A DNA stretch of 41,492 nt from Candidatus Hadarchaeales archaeon (lineage in GTDB: Archaea > Hadarchaeota > Hadarchaeia > Hadarchaeales > WYZ-LMO6). This document shows positions 4,407 to 41,492 of this stretch, piece by piece. The notes under the pieces were generated by a model. It was not told where the DNA came from, did no database searches, and worked only from the letters and a program-made list of their open reading frames with translations. Each line of letters begins with the position of its first letter. Positions within the stretch are counted from its first letter, which is position 1. The stretch lies in NCBI GenBank assembly GCA_038851755.1, contig JAWCKR010000011.1, positions 1 to 41,492 on the forward strand, in the 5' to 3' direction. The translations under genes and the position numbers were made by a program.

Positions 4407-5990
4407 ATGGAAGAAAAGAAGTCGAAGGTGAGGTCCCTCGTTCATGGGGGAGTGCTAGTTCCACCCTACGAGTTCAAGGGGTTGCACATCCTCTATCGAG
4501 GGAAAAGAGTGGACTTGAACCCCCTGCAGGAGGAGATGGCTGTGGCCTTTGGCAGGCATCTCCTGGCGGGCAGGGGTGAAGACAGGGTTTTCGTCAGGAA
4601 CTTCCTCTCAGATTTCAGCGAAGCCCTGGGGTTACCCAAGGACACGGAGCTCGAGCATTTCGACTTCTCGCCGGTGCTGGACTGGCTCAATCGGGAGAAG
4701 AAGAGGAAGGAGGAGATGACGAAGGAGGAGCGCAAGAGGCTGGCGGAGGAGCGGAAGCGTCTGAGGGAGGCCAACAGGGAGAGATGGGGCACGGCCTGGA
4801 TCAACGGGGAGAGGATTGAAGTGAAGAACTACACGGTCGAGCCCCCCTGCGTCTTCGTGGGGAGGGGAAAGCACCCCCAGCGGGGGAGGTGGAAACCCAG
4901 AGTGGAGTACGAAGACATCATCCTGAACCTCTCCCCCGAGGCACCCATGCCTGAGGCCCCGGAGGGCAGGAAGTGGGGCGGGAGGGAGTGGGATCCTGGG
5001 GCTCTGTGGATAGCGAAGTGGAGGGACAAGCTCACGGGCAAGATGAAGTATGTGTGGCTCTCCGACTCCTCCCCCCTGAAGCAGGAGAGGGAGAAGGAGA
5101 AGTTCGACCAGGCTAGGGAGCTGGGAAGGAAGATCGAGAGGGTGAGGGAGCACATAAGGCGGGGTCTCTCAGACCCTGATCCAAAGCGCAGGATGGTGGC
5201 CACCGTCTGCTACCTCATAGACGAGCTGAAGCTGAGGGTGGGGGACGAGAGGGACAGAGAGGAGAGGAACACGGTGGGGGCTACCACCTTGGGTCCAGAG
5301 CACATAAGGTTCGACGGGGGGAGGGTGAGGTTCAGCTTCTTGGGAAAAGACCACGTGCGATGGTCCAAGAGTTTGGAGCCCATTCCCGAGGTTCTCCGGA
5401 ACCTGAAGGAGTTCGCGAGTAGAGGGGAGGAGAGGATTTTCCCGGGGGTGAGTTCGGAGGATGTAAACTCCTTCTTGGGAGAGGCGATGCCAGGTCTCAC
5501 GGCGAAGGTCTTCCGCACCTATCACGCCTCGAAGATAGTGGAGGAGGAGTTGAAGAGGAGGAGGGTGGGGAAGGAGAGCACGGAGATGGAGAAGAAGTAC
5601 GTGGCCAAGATGGCCAACCTGAGAGCCGCGGAGGAGCTGAACCACAAGCGCAAGGTGCCCGCCGGATGGAGGAAGAAGGTGGAGAGGATGAGGGAGAGGA
5701 TAAGGGTGCTGGAACAGAGGATAGCGGAGCTACGGGCGAAACCAGGGAAGAGGACCGAGGAAAGGGTGAAAAAGCTGAAGGAGAGGATAAGGGAGCTCAG
5801 GCTCAGGCTGGAGCTGGAGCGAGAGATAAGGGACTTCAACCTGGGCACCTCCCTCAACTCCTACATCGATCCCAGGATCTACGCCTCTTGGGCCAAGAGG
5901 GTGGGTTGTGGAGTGGAGAAGATTTACTCCAAGTCCCTCCTGAAGAAGTTCTCCTGGGCGGTGGGTCACGACGGGCAAGCCCAGGCCTGA
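4407..5990 (+). CDS. DNA topoisomerase IB, eukaryote-like long form
   Basis: EPPCVFVGRGKHP.RGRWK; catalytic pentad R (LRVGDE), K (FLGKD), R (KVFRTY), H (LNHKR), Y (GTSLNSYIDPR); coiled-coil linker before the Tyr domain. Confidence 0.95.
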   Translation: MEEKKSKVRSLVHGGVLVPPYEFKGLHILYRGKRVDLNPLQEEMAVAFGRHLLAGRGEDRVFVRNFLSDFSEALGLPKDTELEHFDFSPVLDWLNREKKRKEEMTKEERKRLAEERKRLREANRERWGTAWINGERIEVKNYTVEPPCVFVGRGKHPQRGRWKPRVEYEDIILNLSPEAPMPEAPEGRKWGGREWDPGALWIAKWRDKLTGKMKYVWLSDSSPLKQEREKEKFDQARELGRKIERVREHIRRGLSDPDPKRRMVATVCYLIDELKLRVGDERDREERNTVGATTLGPEHIRFDGGRVRFSFLGKDHVRWSKSLEPIPEVLRNLKEFASRGEERIFPGVSSEDVNSFLGEAMPGLTAKVFRTYHASKIVEEELKRRRVGKESTEMEKKYVAKMANLRAAEELNHKRKVPAGWRKKVERMRERIRVLEQRIAELRAKPGKRTEERVKKLKERIRELRLRLELEREIRDFNLGTSLNSYIDPRIYASWAKRVGCGVEKIYSKSLLKKFSWAVGHDGQAQA

Positions 5991-7974: not shown

Positions 7975-9120
7975 TTACATTTTGAGAACCATGATCACTT
8001 CCAGGAGCACGATGGCGGCTATGAGGAGGAGGGTGAGGAACTCCAGGGTGCTGGCGTGTTGGGCGTCCACCCTCTCCATGGCCATGGCGTAGAGTTCCTG
8101 GAGCTGGTCCAGCTTTTTGTCCACCAGGGAGAGCCACTCCGAGACCCTGAAGCGCTCTCCGGCCAAACGGTGAATCTTCCCCAAATACCATTCACCTGTG
8201 AACTTCAGGATGTTCCTCAGGTCCCCCACGTACTCCATGATCTCCACCCTGAGTTCGGCCAGCTCGCTGGCGGTTTTCATCAGCTCCCGGTAGGACCTGC
8301 TTCCCCACCTCACCCCCATCCTCCTTGGGAAGGCCGTGCGCAGGGCGCTGTAGGCTTTCTCCGTCTCCAGGTCCAGCATGGAGTCGTAGGTCTTGAGCTC
8401 CAGGAGCTGGATCTTGGCCAGCTCTATCATCCTCACGTAATCGTCCACGTATCCCTCCTGTTCGTAGATGAGGGCGGAGTACCAGTCCACAATCACCAGA
8501 TCCCTGTTGGAGTAGGTCAGGAAGGACCTGAGGGCGTCGTCCACCTCTTTCCTGCTCAGGGACCTCCACTCCGTTTCTCCCCTGAGCAACCCGGCCGTGT
8601 GCTTCCTGAACTTGGTGAGGAGGTCGGGGGCGGAGAGGGGTGGATCGGAGCGTGAGAGGAGAATGAGGGTGTAGGTCTCGGGCCTGCCGAACTCCTGGTA
8701 GGGAAAGATGATGGCCTTCTTGATCTTCTTCCTGAGCTCCTCGAAGTACCTTCTCGCTATTTCCCCGAACTCCACCTCCTCCCCCCCCACCCTCACCCTC
8801 CTCTCGTCCAGTCCCACCAGCCTGACCACGGAGTCCAGCTCGGCTCCCTCGAACCTGAGGGTGAAGGAAATCTCTATGGCCCCCACGGGGAAGATCTTGG
8901 CCTCCACCTCCAGCCTGTGGCCTTCCACCTCCAGGGTCCCCAGCTTCCCCACCAGGGGGATGAGACCTATGTGCTCGTACTTGGGAGCCAGGATCCTCAT
9001 CCTCCTCCTAGGTCTCTGCTCCACGAGCCCCAGCCTCTCGGCCGGTATGAGGGTCAGGTTCACCTCTCCACCGCAGTCGTAGAAGTACTGGAAGACTATG
9101 GAACCCGTGAGGCGCATCAC
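7975..9120 (-). CDS. Hypothetical membrane-anchored protein, RMD1/DUF155-like
   Basis: 381-aa ORF with host-like codon usage, YFYDCGGEV N-terminus, IFPVGAI, a helical C-terminal part and a terminal TM helix (LEFLTLLLIAAIVLLEVI). Family call from recall only. Confidence 0.55.
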   Translation of the reverse strand: MMRLTGSIVFQYFYDCGGEVNLTLIPAERLGLVEQRPRRRMRILAPKYEHIGLIPLVGKLGTLEVEGHRLEVEAKIFPVGAIEISFTLRFEGAELDSVVRLVGLDERRVRVGGEEVEFGEIARRYFEELRKKIKKAIIFPYQEFGRPETYTLILLSRSDPPLSAPDLLTKFRKHTAGLLRGETEWRSLSRKEVDDALRSFLTYSNRDLVIVDWYSALIYEQEGYVDDYVRMIELAKIQLLELKTYDSMLDLETEKAYSALRTAFPRRMGVRWGSRSYRELMKTASELAELRVEIMEYVGDLRNILKFTGEWYLGKIHRLAGERFRVSEWLSLVDKKLDQLQELYAMAMERVDAQHASTLEFLTLLLIAAIVLLEVIMVLKM

Positions 9121-30659: not shown

Positions 30660-32447
30660 TCAGACCGACACGAGGGAGAGCAGGAGGTAGGAGGAGGTGA
30701 AGACGAGGGCCGAGACCAGGACCATGCGCCTGGCCGTGAGGAGGAACTCCACCTCCTCCCCGCCCGTCCTCAGGAGGGAGAGGTACCAGGCCAGGAGGAG
30801 GGAGAGCAGGAGGGAGGTGAGGCCCAGGGCCAGCTTGAGGAGCACCAGCTCTCCCGCCTCCACCATCCCGGGCAGGAAGGGAAAGGAGGCGAGGCCGGCG
30901 CCAGCCGCCCTCTCCCTCACGAGGAGGGAGACCCCGGAGAGGAGGCCGGTGGCCCAGAGGGACATCGCGCAGACGAGGGGGATGAGGAGCATCGCCATCA
31001 GACCCAGGTTCCCCAGGCTCTCGTCCATCTCCTCCCTGAACCTCCTCTCCACCCTCCTGAGCATCCCCAGGAACTCACCGGCCAGCATGCAGGCCCTCCC
31101 CGCCGCCTGCTCCGAGGTCCTCCTCACCTCCACGATGACCTTCAGGAAGGAACGCACCAGCGAGCTCCTGATCCTCTCCCCCTGCCTTCCCCTGCCGAAG
31201 AGGGCCTCCCCCACTCCTACCCCCAGTCTTTCCTGGGTCCTCGCCACCTCCTCCAGCTGCTCCGAGAGCTCGGAGCCCTCCATGAGCTCGGCGGTCTCCC
31301 TCAGGGCCTCCCCCATCGACTTGCCGTCCAGCATGCGGGAGCCCATGGTGCCCAGGGCCACCTCCCAGTCCCCCAGCTTCCTTCTCTCCTCCTCCCTGAG
31401 CCTGGTCCTCGGACCGAGGGAGAGGGTGGCGTGCAGGTAGAGGGCCCCGGCCGCCCCCCAGATCACCCAGAGGGAGTCCCCCCACCCCCATCCCCTCCAA
31501 ACGTGGAGGAAGAAGGGGGAGGAGAGGAGGAGGAAGAGGCACAGGGGGGCCAGGAGGAGCAGAGGGCCCTTGGGACCCGGGGGGAGTTCGGGAGGGGGGA
31601 GGGTGGGGGGTCTCTTGCCCCCGGCGTAGAGGCAGAAGATCCAGAAGGAGAGGAGGACCAGCAGGCAGAGGGGGAGGAAGAAGCGCAGGCCGAGCCCCAT
31701 GCCCGCCATGCCGAAGAGGGGGGAGAGGCCTATGCCCACCACGATGAGGAGGGAACCGAAGATCACGAAGGCGGCGGTGAGGGGTACCAGCTGCTCCAGC
31801 TCCCTCCTGAGGAAGGCCTCCCTGCTCTCCAGCAGTCGCTCGGGCGCCCTGGAGAGGTCCCTGAGCCTCAGGGCCTCCTCCCTCTCCCCGGTGGAGCGCA
31901 GGATGTCGAAGAGGGCGGTCCTCACCCCCTCGTCCACCCTGCCCCACTTCCCCGCCAGGTGGGTGAGGAGCTCCCTGGTGCTCCCGTACCTCCTCCTCTC
32001 CACCTCCACCATTCCCCTCCTGAGGTCCTCCGCCAGCCTGCCCTCCCCCTGGGCAGCCTGCAGGACGGCCCCCCTCAGGTCTGGGCGGGAGTGGAGGGCG
32101 AAGGAGAGGACCATCACGGTGTTCACCGCCTCCTCCCTCGCCTTGCTCCTCCTCAGCCCCTGGAGGTGGAAGGGATAGAGGTAGAAGAGGAGGCCTAGGA
32201 GGAGGGAGGAACAGAGGGAGAGGGAGGGGAGGTACCAGGGGAAGGAAGAGAGGAGGGCGAGGGGGAGAAGGGGCAGGAAGGGGAGGAGGAGGGAGGCGAG
32301 GAAGCCCGCCAGGAACTCCCCGGGCTCCACTTCCGCCTCCCGCAGGGCTTCGAGGGTGGAGGGGCTCAGCCCCTCTCCCCTGATCCCCGTCACCCTTCTC
32401 CAGAACCGGCAGTGGGCGCGGTAGAGGGAGAGGCCGGGGGAGCCCAT
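30660..32447 (-). CDS. Polytopic membrane protein, TadB/TadC (GspF/ArlJ-like) platform
   Basis: Many TM helices alternating with two cytoplasmic helical domains (GKSMGEAL); starts 1 nt after the ATPase stop. Confidence 0.7.
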   Translation of the reverse strand: MGSPGLSLYRAHCRFWRRVTGIRGEGLSPSTLEALREAEVEPGEFLAGFLASLLLPFLPLLPLALLSSFPWYLPSLSLCSSLLLGLLFYLYPFHLQGLRRSKAREEAVNTVMVLSFALHSRPDLRGAVLQAAQGEGRLAEDLRRGMVEVERRRYGSTRELLTHLAGKWGRVDEGVRTALFDILRSTGEREEALRLRDLSRAPERLLESREAFLRRELEQLVPLTAAFVIFGSLLIVVGIGLSPLFGMAGMGLGLRFFLPLCLLVLLSFWIFCLYAGGKRPPTLPPPELPPGPKGPLLLLAPLCLFLLLSSPFFLHVWRGWGWGDSLWVIWGAAGALYLHATLSLGPRTRLREEERRKLGDWEVALGTMGSRMLDGKSMGEALRETAELMEGSELSEQLEEVARTQERLGVGVGEALFGRGRQGERIRSSLVRSFLKVIVEVRRTSEQAAGRACMLAGEFLGMLRRVERRFREEMDESLGNLGLMAMLLIPLVCAMSLWATGLLSGVSLLVRERAAGAGLASFPFLPGMVEAGELVLLKLALGLTSLLLSLLLAWYLSLLRTGGEEVEFLLTARRMVLVSALVFTSSYLLLSLVSV

Positions 32448-32448
32448 C

Positions 32449-34575
32449 TCACCCTCCCCTCAGCCACCCGAGCCACTCCCGGAAGGTCCCCTCCCCCGCC
32501 CCCTGTTCCCTCACGAGCGAAAGGTATCTGCCGTAGCTCCTGGTGACCCCCTCGAGCTCGATCAGGGAGGGATCTTCCCCGGAGAGCTCCACCAGCCTGG
32601 CCTTCACCAGGGCCTCCCACAGGATCTCCTCCAGCACCTCTTCCTCCTCCCTTCCCTCCCTCCTGCACACGAAGGGCACGAGCTCGCTCCCGCCCTCCTC
32701 CGGGGGGAGGAAGCGGAGCCTCCTCGCGGCCTTCCTCACCCACGCTTCCCCCGGCCTGCGGGAGGAGAGCTCCTTCAGGATCTTCCTGTCGCCCTCCAGC
32801 AGGGAGAGGGGGAAGAGCAGGTCCCTTTTCCTGTCGTAGGAGAAGAGATCCGAGTACTCGGGTTCCTCACCCCCCTTCTTCCTCACCTCCGAGACCTCGA
32901 TCACCCTTCTCACCGTTCCCTCCTTCCCCCTGAAGCGCGCCGTCCCCACCACCAGGTCCACGTGTCTGTACACGGCGGGGGGAAGGCCGAGGATGCGGCA
33001 GATAAGCTCGTACATCTCCCTCCTGCTCCTCGCGTGGAAGCTGCTCACCACGGGCTGGCTCCCCCTCCTCGCCGCGGCCCCCAGCGCCGCCCTCACAGCC
33101 TCCCCCGATCTGACCTCGGCGATGAACCAGTGGGCAGGGCCGCCCCTGAGGAAGGCCTCTATCTGCCTCTCGAGCTCCTCGGGTCTCCCTATCCTCACGT
33201 TCTCCACGGAGTAGCCGCACCTCACGAACTCCTCCACGTGCAGCTCGGGGGTGTCCTGGAAGCAGATCACGTGGTGCTCCCTCCCCACCTCGGGCAGGAG
33301 GCTCTCCAGCAGGCTGGTCTTGGCGCTCCCCACCTCCCCTATGATGAAGGCCGAGGCCCCCTCCCTCACCGCCCACGAGAGGAAGGAAGAGGCCAGGGGG
33401 GTGAGGCTCCCGCGCTGGAGGAAGAGGGGCTGGGTCCAGGTCCTCTCCCTCCTCTTCCTCACCGCCATGCCCACTCCCTTCCCCCAGAGGGCGGGGTCCC
33501 TGGCCAGGAAGACCCTGAGGCCGAGCTCCTCCACCTCCGCGTCCAGCTGGGGCCTCACCTCGTCGAAGGAGGTCCCCATCCTGGAGGCCAGCCTCTCCGC
33601 CAGGGAGAGGAGGAAGGGCGTGGAGCAGTGGATGCCCGTCTCGCACAGGTCCCACCTCTCGTGGACCACCCTCACGGGCTGGAGCTCCGGAGGGGAGGGG
33701 AAGAGGAAGTCGGTGAGGTGCTCGTCCCTGCTCAGGGCCTCCAGCACCCCGTAGGAGGTCCAGGAGGAGAGGAGGAGGGAGAACCCCTCCAGTTTCCTGG
33801 CCGGATACCTCTCTCCCCCCTTCTCCAGGAGGGCCCTCCTCCAGCCTTCCTGCAGCTCCTCCAGGGGAGCGGGCTCCTCCAGGAAGACCTCCTCCAGCAG
33901 CTCCATCTCCTCCTCGGGCAGGGAGAACTCCGGAAGCTCGAGCTCGTAGAAGGGGAGGGGTGAGTCCTCCCTCCTGTAAATTCTCACTTTTCCCCTCCCT
34001 TCCTCGAGGGAGTAGGTGTCCAGCACCTCACCCTTCCCGCTGAAGGGCAGGATGAAGCAGTCGGCGAAGAAGGGGCGGAGGACCTCCCGGGACGCCTCCT
34101 TCCAGAGGGAACTCAGGCGGCGGTATCTCCCCTCCAACTCCTTCAGGAAGGAAGAGAAGAGAGAGGTGCACTCCCGGCACTTCCCCTTCCCGGCCCTCAC
34201 CCGCGGGTGCGGGACCTCCAGGGTCCGCAGGAAGGAGGTCAGGGTTCCCTCCACCGCTTTCGCCCTCTCCCCCACGCACTCCCGGCATTCCTTCCTCCCT
34301 CCCGTCCCCAGCCTGCTTCGCTCGGAGAGGAGGGGGCGGAGGGACCTGAGTTCACTGAGGAAGGGAGGGAGGAAGGGATAGAGGCGGTGGTAGGAACGCC
34401 TGAGGATCACCCCCTCCACCTCCCTCTCGAGGAGGTGGACCAGCACGCACTCCCTGCAGGAGGGATCCGAGAGGGTGGCTCTACCACGGCAGTGATGACA
34501 CTCCACCTCCGCCAGCCTGAGGGGACCGGAGAGCTCCACCTTCATCCGCTCTGGTCCGGCCTTCCGGAGCTCCAT
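32449..34575 (-). CDS. VirB11/CpaF (TadA)-like secretion or pilus ATPase, divergent
   Basis: Walker A GEVGSAKT, Asp box QDTPEL, Walker B FIAEVRSGE, His box SSFHA, RRVIEVSEV; N-terminal CxxC pairs. Confidence 0.82.
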   Translation of the reverse strand: MELRKAGPERMKVELSGPLRLAEVECHHCRGRATLSDPSCRECVLVHLLEREVEGVILRRSYHRLYPFLPPFLSELRSLRPLLSERSRLGTGGRKECRECVGERAKAVEGTLTSFLRTLEVPHPRVRAGKGKCRECTSLFSSFLKELEGRYRRLSSLWKEASREVLRPFFADCFILPFSGKGEVLDTYSLEEGRGKVRIYRREDSPLPFYELELPEFSLPEEEMELLEEVFLEEPAPLEELQEGWRRALLEKGGERYPARKLEGFSLLLSSWTSYGVLEALSRDEHLTDFLFPSPPELQPVRVVHERWDLCETGIHCSTPFLLSLAERLASRMGTSFDEVRPQLDAEVEELGLRVFLARDPALWGKGVGMAVRKRRERTWTQPLFLQRGSLTPLASSFLSWAVREGASAFIIGEVGSAKTSLLESLLPEVGREHHVICFQDTPELHVEEFVRCGYSVENVRIGRPEELERQIEAFLRGGPAHWFIAEVRSGEAVRAALGAAARRGSQPVVSSFHARSRREMYELICRILGLPPAVYRHVDLVVGTARFRGKEGTVRRVIEVSEVRKKGGEEPEYSDLFSYDRKRDLLFPLSLLEGDRKILKELSSRRPGEAWVRKAARRLRFLPPEEGGSELVPFVCRREGREEEEVLEEILWEALVKARLVELSGEDPSLIELEGVTRSYGRYLSLVREQGAGEGTFREWLGWLRGG

Positions 34576-34627: not shown

Positions 34628-35614
34628 GTGGGGAGGGTTTGGGGGAAGATGGATCTCCCCCTCTACCTCCTCTTCGGGGCCCTCACCGCCCTCCTCCTGG
34701 CCTCGGCCTTCCTCTTCCAGCTCACCGCGCAGGCGAGGGAGGCCGTGGACGAGCAGGCCTGGGGGCTCCTGGAGGGCCTGGCCCGCTCGGCCTTCTCCCT
34801 CCTCCCCGGGGAGGAGACGAGGGTGAACCTCCCGCCCTCCCTGGGGGGATGCGCCTACGAGTTCCGGGTGGAGGGGAACGTCCTCCGCGTGAGGATCCTG
34901 GATGGGGTGAGGGAGGGGAAGCTCTACTCCCTTGAACTCGCTGAGGAGGTGAGGGTGGAGAACTCCTCCTTCGGGGGAACGGTCTACCTGCGAAGGGAGG
35001 AGGGTGGTCTGGTTCTCTCCTCCTCTCCCCTTCCTCCCCTTCCCTCTCCTTCTTCCTTCTCCCCCTCTTCCTCCCTCCTCCCGCCCTTCTGTTCCCTCGC
35101 CAGGGAAAACCCAAGGGTCGCTTCTGCCCTCCTCCTCTCCTTCTCTCTCTACGGGGACCCCGAGGGATACGCAGTGAGGGGGGAGAGCGTGGCGGTGAGG
35201 GTGGGCGGCAGCTGGTTGCTGGTGGGTGGGAGGGAAACGGCTGAGAAGGTGGGAGCGGTGGAGAACGCCTGGGTGGTGGAGAGGGTGGAGGAGGGGAGCT
35301 GTGGGGGAGCATGGGAGGACTGCCCTTCCGTGGGGGAGGCGGTCTCGGGGGGATGGGCCCTCACCCCTTCCCAGGCCCTCTCCGAATTCCTGGGAAGGGC
35401 GTGGAGGTGGGAGAACGGCGTGGTGGAACCAGAAAACCTCACGTGGAGGGCGGCCGCGGTCACCACGGCGGTAGGTTCCTTCCCCGCCTACCGTTTCGAG
35501 TTCAGCTCGGGAGGGGAGGACTTCGTGGTCTACTACAGGATGCTGAGGTGGTGGTACCTGGAGAACTCCCCGGGGTTCTTCATGCAGAGCGAGCCCAGCC
35601 TGGAACCAGTCTAG
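34628..35614 (+). CDS. Pilin-like or secreted hypothetical protein
   Basis: N-terminal hydrophobic helix after ...WG, NLPPSLGGCAYEFRV segment like archaeal pilus-associated proteins, Ser/Pro linker, second domain. Start uncertain (34604, 34628 or 34649). Confidence 0.55.
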   Translation: MGRVWGKMDLPLYLLFGALTALLLASAFLFQLTAQAREAVDEQAWGLLEGLARSAFSLLPGEETRVNLPPSLGGCAYEFRVEGNVLRVRILDGVREGKLYSLELAEEVRVENSSFGGTVYLRREEGGLVLSSSPLPPLPSPSSFSPSSSLLPPFCSLARENPRVASALLLSFSLYGDPEGYAVRGESVAVRVGGSWLLVGGRETAEKVGAVENAWVVERVEEGSCGGAWEDCPSVGEAVSGGWALTPSQALSEFLGRAWRWENGVVEPENLTWRAAAVTTAVGSFPAYRFEFSSGGEDFVVYYRMLRWWYLENSPGFFMQSEPSLEPV

Positions 35615-35647: not shown

Positions 35648-36157
35648 TCAAACTCCCTCGATCATCCTGATGATTTTAGAGTACAGCTCCGCCGAACACC
35701 TCCAGCCTGAGCTTACCATATCGTCCAAGGCCAACTTCGCCCTTTCCTTCGAGATCGACCCAAGCTTTACCAAAAGGGCGAGGATGAAGGCGGTGCCCCC
35801 GTGCTCGATTCCGTAGACCTTGGCTGCGTCCCTGGCCACTCTGTCGTCCACCACCGCCATTCCTCCGACTTCTTTCGCCAGGGCCAGAACCTCCGCATCC
35901 GCCGGGTGGAGCTCGGGTACCCTGCAAAGCAGGCGGAGGAGCTTCTCGTTTCGGACCCTCACGATTTTCAACGTTTCCTCTTGGAGGATTCTCTCGATTA
36001 TGAGGGCATCCTTCGCCGCCTTTTCCTTTCCCTTGTTTAAGACCTCTTCTTTAACGCTGGGGGGGATGAGTTTCTCACAGGGTATGTCCCTCAAGAGGGG
36101 GAGGAGGCCTACCTTGGCCAGATACATCAGGGGGGTTGAGTTGAAAACGAGACGCAT
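35648..36157 (-). CDS. PIN-domain toxin (DUF3368/VapC-like)
   Basis: VFNSTPL, PPSVKEE, LHPADAEVLALA, VVDDRVAR, GTAFIL. Confidence 0.85.
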   Translation of the reverse strand: MRLVFNSTPLMYLAKVGLLPLLRDIPCEKLIPPSVKEEVLNKGKEKAAKDALIIERILQEETLKIVRVRNEKLLRLLCRVPELHPADAEVLALAKEVGGMAVVDDRVARDAAKVYGIEHGGTAFILALLVKLGSISKERAKLALDDMVSSGWRCSAELYSKIIRMIEGV

Positions 36158-36164
36158 GCAGCCT

Positions 36165-36482
36165 TCATCGCGAGATTTTTTTGGCCAATCCGAATTCGCG
36201 CTCTATTTCTTCCGGCGACAGATGCACCCACTCGATTTTTCGATCCCTCACCAGCTCTGATATCTCCCAGAGGGAAACGCCCGCCAGTTCCGCCGCTTTC
36301 GCGAAAGTTATTTTTCCCTGCCTCAGCAGTTCCAGCGCCCGCTCCTTCCTCCACTCCGAGATACCACGCTCGAGGATTTTTCTGACCGCGGTTGATTTGT
36401 CCACGCCCTCCACTTTTATGAACTCCCTTATGTACCGGTCGATTTCTTCCGGAACCCGTGCGCCGAGAGGCTTGGACACCAT
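36165..36482 (-). CDS. UPF0175-family antitoxin with RHH-like N-terminus
   Basis: GARVPEE...DKSTAVRKIL (RHH-like) and GKITFAKAAELAGVSLWE (HTH); directly upstream of the PIN gene. Confidence 0.85.
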   Translation of the reverse strand: MVSKPLGARVPEEIDRYIREFIKVEGVDKSTAVRKILERGISEWRKERALELLRQGKITFAKAAELAGVSLWEISELVRDRKIEWVHLSPEEIEREFGLAKKISR

Positions 36483-39217: not shown

Positions 39218-41492
39218 ATGAAGGAAAAAGCGGCGCTAGCGATCGCAGCGTTGATGCTAGTTTCCCTAGCGATGGGAATCACGATAGGCACGACCACCAC
39301 GGTCACCGGGGCGCACACGCCCTCAGTCTCTGTGGACAAAACCAAAGTCGTAGGCGGCTACAGCGGGGTTTTCACCATCACCGTGACGAACGCCTCCGGT
39401 TCCACGCACGCCATCAAGGAGGTGCAGCTGACCCTGCCCTCCGGCTGGTCTGGAGGCAACCCGCTGAAGAAGGTCCCGAAGGACAACGTAGTCCTGCTGG
39501 TGGGTGACAACCTTGTGGTTCTGCCGGCGGGGACTGTCTTGGAAGTCTTCGCCGAAAACAAGGACAACATCATCATCCCTGAGAACACCGACGTGATCAT
39601 CCCGAAGTACGAGAACTTCTACTTCGGAATTCAGCGCTACCAGCTACTGGAGAACGCCATCATGGAGCCCACCAATGATAGGAAGACGGATAATTTCGAG
39701 ACTATGAAGGGGATAGCAGGTTGCGTGGATAACGAGGAGAACTTCAAGTTGGCCAAGCCCCTCACCGTCACACTGTGGCAGGACAACCGGCTCAGGCTCC
39801 TCCAGGACACCCTCGTGATACTGGACAGTGACAACATAGTGATACTGCCGGAGAACCTCCTGGCCCAGGTGGTTGCTGACACCAACGAGAACGAGCGCGA
39901 GAACCTGGATGTGACGCCAATAAAGGAGATAAAGGTGAAGGTGAAGGAGAACACCTTCAGGTGCGTCTCCTCCAGCCTTTCCACCAGTCCTTCCCTCTCA
40001 GGGGTCAACATGAGCGGGGAGCTGGTGCAGCTGGTGGAGAACATCGTGGTGATACCCGCCAACACGGTGGTGAAGATAGAGGGTAACCTCAGGGCTAAGA
40101 TCCCGGAGAACACGCAAGTGATAAGGGAGAGCGGAAAGAAGCTGGAAGTGGCTGCGGCCGAGAACTTGCCTGCTAACTGGATGCAGGCCACCAACAAGTG
40201 GACGGCGATAGGGGACAACACCCTGGCGCCCGGCAGCAGCTTAGAGTTCCCGGTAAGGTTAACCGCTCCTTCGGCCGCTGGCACCTACACCCTCTACGTG
40301 ACCACCACCGATACCGCGGGCATCATCATCGACACCCCCGTGCAGATTACTGTGGACAACGCCGCTCCTTCCCTGACCATCTCGGTCTCCCCGAGCTGGG
40401 TGAAGGGAGGGGTGGAGGTTACGGTAACCGTGAAGGGTAATGAGCCCTTCACCTTCGACAACGTATTCGTGGCAGAAAACAATGGAGAGAACGTGCCTCT
40501 CACCATGACGCCTAACGCCGACAACACGGAGTGGACCGGAACCTACACCACGGGCGAGAACGAGAACAGGGATGGCTGGGCGACGATTACGGTGGTGAAA
40601 GCCAAGGACGACTTGGGCAACTCCACCACCGTCTCCGACAACACCAAGCTCTTCATCGACAGGAGGAAGCCTGGCAAGCCCAACCTAGGCGCGATGGGCT
40701 TCCCCGGCGCCTGGGATTCCAAGTCCAGCTTCGCCATCAACTGGACCTTCACCTTAGCCAACGCTCTCACGGAGGACAACTTGCCCTTCGTTCCGTCAGG
40801 TTACAGCCCCGAGAACATGAAGCTCGTAATCCTAGTGGACAACGCCGAGGTGGCCACTCTCACCGCGGGTCCCACGGGAAGGGTCAGCTACGCGCTGACG
40901 CTCTCCGATGGGAAGCACGTGGTGGGTGCCTACTTCGCGGACAAGGCGGGTAACAAAGGAGAGGAGAACCTGGAGAACGTAGTTATCGACAACAACAAGC
41001 CCACCATCACCTTCGTCTTCCCGGAGAACGGGCAGTACATCAAGGACAACACGCCCACCATCCAGGTAATCATAGCGGACACCGTGGGGGTGGAGAACAG
41101 CAGGGTCATCGATGGTGTCACTGACAACGATGGGTACAGGGTGGGCCTCTACCTCGAGAACGGCACACCCATAGATGAGAACCTCGTGCCGAGCGCCAAT
41201 CCGACCCAGACTGACAACGTGGCGGGAAGGATTGTCTTCACCACCTTCACCTTCGAGAACACCTGGCCAACTGAGCTCCCCGACAACACCTACATCCTCC
41301 GCGTCGTAGCAGGAGACAACCTCAGGCTCGAGAATCTCTGGATCAAGTTCACGGTGGACACGCACGCGCCCCCCTCGCCCCCGTCAACCAGCTTGGTGGG
41401 GAGCATCACGGCCGGGACGCTGGCTGATCCCACCGGAACGAAGAACAGGACTATGAGCCTGAGGGGTACCGCGGAGGCTGGTGCCACCATCA
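39218..41492 (+). CDS. Large secreted S-layer/cell-surface protein with Ig-like domains, 3' end outside window
   Basis: Not in the ORF track (no stop). Frame open for 758 codons by manual translation; signal peptide MKEKAALAIAALMLVSLAMG; Ig-like boundary motifs TVDNAAP, DKAGN, IDNNKP, TVDTHAP; AAGGAGG SD. Confidence 0.9.
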   Translation, partial: MKEKAALAIAALMLVSLAMGITIGTTTTVTGAHTPSVSVDKTKVVGGYSGVFTITVTNASGSTHAIKEVQLTLPSGWSGGNPLKKVPKDNVVLLVGDNLVVLPAGTVLEVFAENKDNIIIPENTDVIIPKYENFYFGIQRYQLLENAIMEPTNDRKTDNFETMKGIAGCVDNEENFKLAKPLTVTLWQDNRLRLLQDTLVILDSDNIVILPENLLAQVVADTNENERENLDVTPIKEIKVKVKENTFRCVSSSLSTSPSLSGVNMSGELVQLVENIVVIPANTVVKIEGNLRAKIPENTQVIRESGKKLEVAAAENLPANWMQATNKWTAIGDNTLAPGSSLEFPVRLTAPSAAGTYTLYVTTTDTAGIIIDTPVQITVDNAAPSLTISVSPSWVKGGVEVTVTVKGNEPFTFDNVFVAENNGENVPLTMTPNADNTEWTGTYTTGENENRDGWATITVVKAKDDLGNSTTVSDNTKLFIDRRKPGKPNLGAMGFPGAWDSKSSFAINWTFTLANALTEDNLPFVPSGYSPENMKLVILVDNAEVATLTAGPTGRVSYALTLSDGKHVVGAYFADKAGNKGEENLENVVIDNNKPTITFVFPENGQYIKDNTPTIQVIIADTVGVENSRVIDGVTDNDGYRVGLYLENGTPIDENLVPSANPTQTDNVAGRIVFTTFTFENTWPTELPDNTYILRVVAGDNLRLENLWIKFTVDTHAPPSPPSTSLVGSITAGTLADPTGTKNRTMSLRGTAEAGATI

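Follow-up and report, generated by a model that had tools for sequence, protein, structure and literature searches.

Why should the asparagines of an archaeal surface protein stand, for the most part, directly after an acidic residue? The question arises at the end of a 41,492-nucleotide stretch of DNA from a Candidatus Hadarchaeales archaeon (contig JAWCKR010000011.1 of assembly GCA_038851755.1, positions 1 to 41,492 of the forward strand; hereafter the window), where a 3'-truncated gene for a surface protein (39218..41492, forward strand) runs for 758 codons to position 41491 in the list of open reading frames (ORFs) and is still open at the window end. A first-pass annotation of this DNA had counted about 45 of about 65 Asn in these 758 residues as preceded by Asp or Glu, had placed most of them outside N-x-S/T glycosylation sequons, had described them as spread out and free of tandem DNA repeats, and had suggested selection on the dipeptide. 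These claims are borne out by the analysis below, which shows that the acidic residue and the Asn belong to a motif, [DE]-N-{P} (Asp or Glu, then Asn, then any residue other than Pro), that is under positive selection in exported Hadarchaeales proteins and in none of the other proteins looked at.

A protein-level bias in a surface-protein gene

The exact count is 45 of 65, with 25 Asn following Glu and 20 following Asp. The composition of the ORF leads one to expect 7.55 such [DE]N pairs, and 20,000 composition-matched shuffles gave a mean of 7.56 (standard deviation 2.47) and a maximum of 18; none reached 45, which rules out a composition artefact. Asn makes up 8.6% of the residues of the protein. 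Six Asn lie in N-x-S/T sequons, and among these N648 is the only one that is also a [DE]N site, so that 1 of the 45 sites falls in a sequon.

The pairs are coded mainly by GAG-AAC (22) and GAC-AAC (18), together 40 of the 45, and every codon for Asp, Glu and Asn is represented. In frame the hexamer GANAAY appears 45 times, compared to none in the other two frames and three on the opposite strand; this restriction to one frame, together with the lack of any consistent codon restriction, all but rules out a nucleotide-level motif. No tandem or long direct DNA repeats were found in the ORF, which holds only short similarities around GA[GC]AAC, and an origin in DNA repeats is ruled out likewise. 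Because the bias exceeds what the shuffles produce, is confined to the reading frame, is free of repeats and draws on every acid and Asn codon, we take it to be real and to reside at the level of the protein. Copies of the gene on two other genome contigs, here called L001 and L002, agree, with 40 of 60 and 46 of 73 Asn after an acidic residue.

A side observation concerns the Asp codons. In the window gene (39218-41491) Asp is coded by GAT in 2 of 20 cases before an Asn codon, compared to 10 of 22 in other places. A mild avoidance of GAT before AAY is seen in two of the three genes, the window gene and L001 1-2697 (p 0.017 and 0.024), but not in L002. This possibly fits avoidance of TpA at the codon junction.

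All 45 sites lie between residues 89 and 706 (39482..41335, forward strand), at a mean of one per 14 residues. They extend over several predicted immunoglobulin (Ig)-like domains, which for the surface-protein family rules out confinement to a single structural repeat. Eight sequences gave no evidence of regular spacing between sites: the coefficient of variation was 0.71–0.97 against about 0.94–0.95 for random placement, and only one of the eight fell under the 5% tail.

The ORF represents the N-terminal part of a Hadarchaeales protein of about 950 residues, its full-length relatives being mostly about 915–1050 residues long. A word-index search returned 63 proteins at 33–81% identity, including the query's own cluster, and those that carry a name are Hadesarchaea or Candidatus Hadarchaeales; an exhaustive search of representatives gave 474 matches at E<=0.001, headed by full-length family members, with generic multi-Ig proteins lower in the list. 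Residues 1-31 (39218..39310, forward strand) resemble a signal peptide, with a hydrophobic stretch AALAIAALMLVSLAMGI and a presumed cleavage site. Hydropathy places the hydrophobic window at residues 3-29, and an AlphaFold2 (AF2) model has a helix at 4-15, with a predicted local distance difference test score (pLDDT) below 50 for residues 1-30. The segment, judged to be a secretion signal from hydropathy and the model, is kept among homologues. The family consensus has the signal-peptide-like segment at its start and a hydrophobic membrane anchor at its C-terminal end; the anchor is seen in the consensus of the full-length homologues, and the window copy stops before it. A Big_13 bacterial Ig-like domain covers residues 517-591 (40766..40990, forward strand; Pfam PF19077, E 1.7e-07, 32.1 bits, cutoff 27).

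The AF2 model, built on a 46-sequence alignment, is all-beta and multi-domain with a mean pLDDT of 88.1, and Foldseek matched it to generic Ig-domain arrays only. Among these is the surface-layer (S-layer) protein of Nitrosopumilus maritimus (8c8o; Foldseek E 3.3e-09), whose architecture likewise runs from a signal peptide through serial Ig-like domains to a C-terminal anchor; the template-modelling (TM) score is low (0.18), which points to domain arrays of a generic kind rather than to a specific relationship. We read the window gene as encoding the outward part of an S-layer-type main surface protein of the archaeon, an assignment drawn from sequence and model, with lattice formation putative.

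A directional motif in exported Hadarchaeales proteins

Pooling the sequence context of Asn in 52 family members reveals a strong bias only at position -1, where Glu is enriched 5.6-fold and Asp 4.5-fold. No dipeptide in the family is more enriched than EN (5.67-fold) and DN (4.53-fold); the next reaches 2.44-fold. The reverse pairs are not enriched (NE 1.32-fold, ND 0.74-fold), [DE]Q is depleted (0.30- to 0.38-fold), and acidic residues are also depleted at -2 of the motif (Asp 0.62-fold, Glu 0.45-fold). Seen from the acidic side, 1824 of the 4203 Asp and Glu residues in the N-terminal part of the family (43%) are followed by Asn.

The sites are both conserved and newly gained. An acid stands at -1 in 32 of the 41 conserved Asn columns of the alignment, and Asp and Glu are mixed in 20 of these 32. 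The [DE]N share of Asn is 69–78% where Asn is common in a column; in columns where Asn is rare (present in fewer than 20% of sequences) the share is 40%, against a background of 12%. Where a variable column lacks Asn, an acid precedes it in no more than 535 of 5877 cells. Between relatives at 35–40% identity, about half of the query sites are retained and 8–19 new ones are gained. Since the sequences within the family are related, pooled cell counts overstate independence, and column-level counts are given where this is crucial.

After the acid and the Asn, Pro is nearly absent. It follows [DE]N in 13 of 2967 cells and other Asn in 75 of 1617, or in 2 of 230 [DE]N alignment columns against 21 of 285 others (Fisher p 3e-4), and predicted secondary structure would lead one to expect about 5%. 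No Pro was found at +1 of the 66 sites in three clostripain-type proteins or of the 185 sites in paralogue parts, both described below. Conversely, cells with N-P have an acid at -1 in 13 of 88 cases, i.e. at background level. Other preferences at +1 are milder: Gly, Ser, Asp and Asn are reduced to about half after [DE]N (Asp 0.51-fold), Val, Leu, Ile and Thr are slightly favoured, and A/I/L/V/M/T together account for 61% of sites compared to 45% of background. At +2, Ser or Thr follows in 295 of 2992 pooled [DE]N sites (9.9%) compared to a background of 19.1%; counted by column the figures are 31 of 230 for [DE]N and 46 of 285 for other Asn, a non-significant difference, and the pooled negative association with N-x-S/T is not relied on. 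The motif is [DE]-N-{P}; it is directional, Asp and Glu are interchangeable in it, and it operates at the protein level.

The bias extends through the family and into proteins that share little with it. All 62 Hadarchaeal-type homologues are biased (z 8.8–17, with 42–77% of Asn after Asp or Glu); the single Elusimicrobiota match has 9 of 75 (z 0.3). In paralogues with homology limited to the leader and first domains, the remaining, non-homologous parts are biased too, with 99 [DE]N against 35 expected in the beta-helix protein P0090, 29 against 6.4 in P0062, 42 against 16.7 in P0145 and 15 against 3.3 in P0120. In a second exported family, unrelated to the first and eight members strong, one of them encoded by the window ORF at 34649..35614, the motif accounts for 49 of the 60 Asn, compared to about 8 expected. 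In its alignment Asn comes and goes beside a constant Glu (VENAW / VEKAW / VERAW and WENCP / WEDCP / WEECP).

A third family was searched with the clostripain (Peptidase_C11) domain of P0120. Among the 120 proteins listed only P0120, P0208 and P0209 are biased (z 7.4, 7.8 and 9.5). P0208 bears the source name Candidatus Hadarchaeales; P0120 and P0209 are presumed to belong to the same group, the lineage of proteins without a source name (e.g. P0090, P0145, P0209) being judged from similarity and from the signature itself. The other 117, with source names such as Eremiobacteraeota, Thermoprotei, Thermoplasmata, Heimdallarchaeota, Anaerolineales and others, together have 706 [DE]N against 664 expected (ratio 1.06, median z 0.08). 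Within the clostripain domain alone the three biased proteins have 9 of 17, 15 of 30 and 18 of 29 Asn after an acid (expected 2.6, 4.5 and 4.9), compared to 117 of 865 (expected 129, or 3.1 [DE]N per domain) in 38 other aligned domains. Many Asn of the trio's clostripain domains stand after an acidic residue that other lineages also conserve. P0120 itself (1031 residues) combines the family leader and first domain with the clostripain-like peptidase domain and a C-terminal membrane anchor, and also holds a collagen-like G-P-x repeat at residues ~779-827; a search of the ESM Atlas with P0120 gave no usable match.

Proteins expected to stay inside the cell show none of this. In the 31 Pfam-supported cytoplasmic genes of the window 16 of 170 Asn follow Asp or Glu (23.5±4.4 expected), and Asn itself is very scarce there (170 of 9482 residues, 1.8%). 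The genes next to the surface protein on L001 and L002 show no bias. Generic multi-Ig proteins of other origin scatter around z 0, and a few non-Hadarchaeal multi-repeat proteins (P0105, P0125 and P0160) reach z 5.8–6.4, plausibly because motifs are repeated in their tandem Ig/PKD domains. As far as we could test it, the bias is lineage-specific rather than fold-specific, compartment-specific, directional, dependent on the charge at -1, and selected as a unit.

Candidate explanations of the motif

The first-pass annotation had proposed a lineage-specific signal on exported proteins. Its lineage and export specificity stands, given three exported families set against cytoplasmic genes and homologues from other lineages, while the mechanisms it attached to the signal, namely non-canonical N-glycosylation, succinimide or isopeptide chemistry, or metal binding, are hypothetical. 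As a description it is right: the enrichment survives composition control, is spread beyond one structural repeat, and involves conserved Asn.

We rank first the reading in which the motif serves a modification of Asn that takes place outside the cytoplasm and is specific to the lineage, as its acceptor or recognition site, because short motifs of this nature, the exclusion of Pro included, typically mark the acceptor sites of enzymes. The near-absence of Pro at +1 would fit an enzyme acceptor motif or a chemistry that needs the backbone NH of the +1 residue. Arguing from sequence patterns, we put the probability of this candidate mechanism at about one in three. The likeliest form of such a modification is non-canonical N-glycosylation: a divergent transferase would add an N-linked glycan to the Asn side chain, would read the carboxylate at -1 instead of a Ser/Thr at +2, and would run beside ordinary N-x-S/T glycosylation. 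With a site every 15 residues or so, it would lay a glycan coat over the environment-facing domains of the S-layer protein, and the same coat would cover a membrane-anchored protein encoded next to a pilus/archaellum-type ATPase as well as surface enzymes. That Hadarchaeales possess a second, non-canonical Asn-directed system of this kind, acting at such density on outward-facing domains without the Ser/Thr at +2, is put forward tentatively. S-layer and pilus-type proteins are the classical substrates of archaeal N-glycosylation.

The motif can be set beside three kinds of known glycosylation signal. It shares with the N-x-S/T sequons of the oligosaccharyltransferases AglB, STT3 and PglB that it is short, centred on Asn, found on exported proteins and closed to Pro at +1, the last being a hallmark of those sequons (PMC8342417); unlike them it needs no Ser/Thr at +2 (1 of 45 query sites) and has its key residue at -1. 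In the extended sequon of bacterial PglB, D/E-x-N-x-S/T, an upstream acid helps to define the acceptor Asn (PMC8342417), but that acid stands at -2, whereas here it stands at -1, acids at -2 are depleted and no hydroxyl at +2 is needed. A canonical or PglB-type sequon is ruled out, Ser/Thr at +2 and an acid at -2 not being features of the sites. The closest likeness, in logic only, is to the general O-glycosylation motif of Bacteroidetes, (D)(S/T)(A/I/L/V/M/T), which PMC8550257 describes as phylum-specific and as occurring on exported proteins, including those of S-layers. Both motifs comprise three residues with an acid at -1 and a mostly aliphatic residue after the centre, and both mark the exported proteins of one lineage. 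The Hadarchaeales motif differs in that its centre is Asn and not Ser/Thr, Glu is as frequent as Asp, the +1 preference is weak apart from the exclusion of Pro, the organism is an archaeon and the glycan is putative; D[ST][AILVMT] itself is not enriched in the surface-protein family (309 observed against 416 expected). In literature on Hadesarchaea/Hadarchaeota S-layers, AglB, glycosylation and archaeal non-canonical sequons we found no published description of the bias, and no paper linking Hadesarchaea with AglB or S-layer chemistry, in a search that left most subscription journals outside.

A number of observations weigh against the acceptor-site reading. No transferase relevant to a modification is encoded in the window or in the L001 and L002 loci, and the contrast between exported and cytoplasmic proteins comes from three exported families, one 41-kb window and two short loci. 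The exclusion of Pro has an exception in one conserved E-N-P site of the second family (4 of 49), and outside Hadarchaeales Pro is already somewhat rarer after [DE]N (3.1%) than after other Asn (4.9%). In the model of the surface protein 28 of the 45 [DE]N Asn lie 0-3 residues before a strand start, compared to 255 of 728 residues overall (35%), and 15 of the 45 lie within predicted strands. Two sites, N175 and N681, are invariant. Gly takes the place of Asn at several conserved sites (e.g. at residue 690 in 16 of 46 sequences), and such exchanges suggest roles in backbone conformation. The surface protein is moreover divided into two zones that differ in the context of their Asn. Across columns 60-1100 of the full-length alignment (~720 residues) 5–10% of residues are Asn and 45–77% of these are [DE]N. 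In the membrane-proximal stalk, the last ~230 residues before the anchor, [DE]N accounts for 15 of 283 Asn, a result that rests on few conserved columns and indicates a lack of enrichment rather than depletion. The stalk (alignment columns 1100-1470, past the window end) carries conserved canonical sequons instead, with the consensus AGNES and GNxSS; in columns 1300-1470 a single Asn of 195 is [DE]N and 77 of 195 are in N-x-S/T. Canonical sequons also occupy the conserved positions N58 and N468. A general sequon should occur in the stalk too, and its lack there weakens the case for one. The stalk result, the in-strand and invariant sites, the Asn-to-Gly exchanges and the very high density of sites all favour a structural role for a considerable proportion of them.

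The main rival is accordingly an unmodified structural or physicochemical motif, in which the acid at -1 caps the +1 NH in the manner of an Asx or Glx turn and the Asn adopts a turn or strand-start conformation; in a variant, pairs of acid and amide would bind water or cations (Ca2+/Mg2+) and so make the outward-facing domains stiffer and more soluble. We regard this rival as nearly as probable as the acceptor-site reading. Besides the points just given, it would explain why 17 of the 45 [DE]N Asn occupy the first residue of a strand or the one preceding it (among all residues, 136 of 728), why Asn at conserved sites is often exchanged for Gly or Asp, why the motif is kept in 32 conserved columns and limited to the canopy part of the protein, and, through capping of the +1 NH, why Pro is excluded. 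Sites 380, 591 and 610 lie within inter-domain motifs of the V/I-D-N-x-x-P type that are common in Ig-like domains, and which may resemble the DxNDN calcium sites of cadherins. However, the same folds elsewhere lack the motif, as the 117 clostripain homologues, the 38 aligned domains and the generic Ig arrays show, and so do cytoplasmic proteins of the same genome. The interchange of Asp and Glu at 20 of 32 sites is not expected of a cap whose geometry is critical; other Asn of the query have a similar tendency towards strand starts (9 of 20), and position thus does not explain the acid; and the motif is found in and between helices too, with sites of the second family occupying, in its AF2 model, the start, the end or the interior of a strand, an E-N-G hairpin or a stretch between helices.

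The remaining explanations compete less well with the acceptor-site reading. In long-lived extracellular proteins that cannot be repaired, Asn might be tolerated only where something protects it against succinimide-type deamidation or against a protease directed at Asn; an acid at -1, a sequon glycan or a Pro at +1 would give this protection. This would account for the fall of the -1 acid to background before N-P, the halving of Gly, Ser, Asp and Asn at +1, and the predominance of N-x-S/T among stalk Asn, and it would give a meaning to the surface-anchored clan-CD (C11) peptidase that shares the leader domain of the surface protein. We nevertheless consider it unlikely, as a filter of this kind cannot raise the share of acids followed by Asn to 43–51%, or the number of [DE]N per clostripain domain to 9–18 from the 3.1 seen elsewhere. 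N-G is depleted only about 2-fold compared to the 5-fold enrichment of the acid. In peptides, deamidation rates are dominated by the +1 residue and the residue at -1 matters little. Cytoplasmic proteins show no such preference, and an Asn-specific protease should cause loss of Asn, which is instead far more frequent in the surface protein than in the cytoplasm. A further possibility, that [DE]-N pairs are converted into stable succinimide (or isoaspartyl) staples that rigidify surface proteins, has a precedent in the glutamine amidotransferase (GATase) of Methanocaldococcus jannaschii (MjGATase), in which, according to PMC13234242, a stable succinimide forms at Asn109 of Glu108-Asn109-Asp110, Glu108 is listed as one residue that may play a role, and Asn stays intact in a D110P mutant. 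The Glu-Asn pair in an archaeal protein and the need for a +1 NH, which Pro lacks, are shared with our motif. However, the MjGATase succinimide is a single cytoplasmic site dependent on the +1 Asp, whereas here about 45 sites per chain lie outside the cell, Asp at +1 is depleted, the bulky Val, Leu, Ile and Thr that dominate there would slow cyclisation, and cytoplasmic proteins are without bias; we think such staples highly improbable as the cause. Finally, we give next to no chance to a GANAAY signal in the DNA, a compositional effect or a cryptic repeat. The predominance of two codon pairs and the scarcity of GAT in two genes would suit such an origin, but it is contradicted by the shuffles, the in-frame hexamer, the lack of repeats and of any codon restriction in the third gene, the interchange of Asp and Glu in the same columns, the exclusion of Pro, which is a protein feature, and the recurrence of the bias in independent assemblies.

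Neighbouring genes and the meaning of the motif

The member of the second exported family in the window (P0200; 34649..35614, forward strand) is a protein of 321 residues in which 6 of 8 Asn are in E-N. It has an N-terminal hydrophobic helix and an alpha/beta body (AF2 model, pLDDT 82.5, helix 3-50), and it is presumed to face the outside. It has no Pfam or NCBIfam family, and a pilin label was not adopted, as Foldseek gave no PDB fold match at E<=0.001. Its divergent neighbour (32452..34575, reverse strand) encodes a FlaI / type II-IV secretion-type ATPase (Pfam T2SSE, 28.3 bits; a FlaI-like NCBIfam match with E 3.4e-21 lies far below the curated cutoff), which bears a Cys-rich N-terminal extension. 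Downstream of the ATPase gene lies one for a polytopic membrane protein with about eight hydrophobic segments by hydropathy and no Pfam match (30663..32447, reverse strand). Together these genes (30663-34575 on the reverse and 34649-35614 on the forward strand) may form a pilus-like assembly locus.

The window has a GC content of ~0.59–0.67, with ~0.85–0.9 at third codon positions in genes, and carries archaeal housekeeping genes (among them aIF2-gamma, aIF5B-like, those for the ribosomal proteins S6e, L24e, S15 and S2, Kae1/TsaD and MoaB/MoaC/MoeA). It also contains a complete eukaryote-type topoisomerase IB (4407-5987, forward strand; Pfam Topoisom_I_N, Topoisom_I and Topo_C_assoc, with E-values of 3e-54 to 8e-62), small neighbouring genes whose products contain DUF3368 and UPF0175 domains (35651-36482, reverse strand), which are presumably a toxin-antitoxin-type pair, and an ORF of 381 residues (7978-9120, reverse strand) with good coding statistics, one C-terminal hydrophobic segment, no Pfam match and three Asn, none after an acid.

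If the acceptor-site reading is true, [DE]-N-{P} would be the first Asn sequon to work without Ser/Thr at +2, the D-(S/T)-x motif of Bacteroidetes would have a counterpart in the archaea, and a new transferase would be indicated; as the sequon could be read from genomes, the surface glycoproteome of an uncultured order would become predictable from sequence. Should the motif prove to be a purely structural or ion-binding idiom, it would remain an unusual two-residue rule, one that governs 40–75% of the Asn in exported proteins of a single lineage and leaves no trace in the same folds of other lineages. The signature poses a clean problem for comparative genomics, namely which gene tracks the [DE]N bias. 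Either way, [DE]N at half or more of all Asn is a simple and strong marker by which exported proteins of Hadarchaeales can be flagged.

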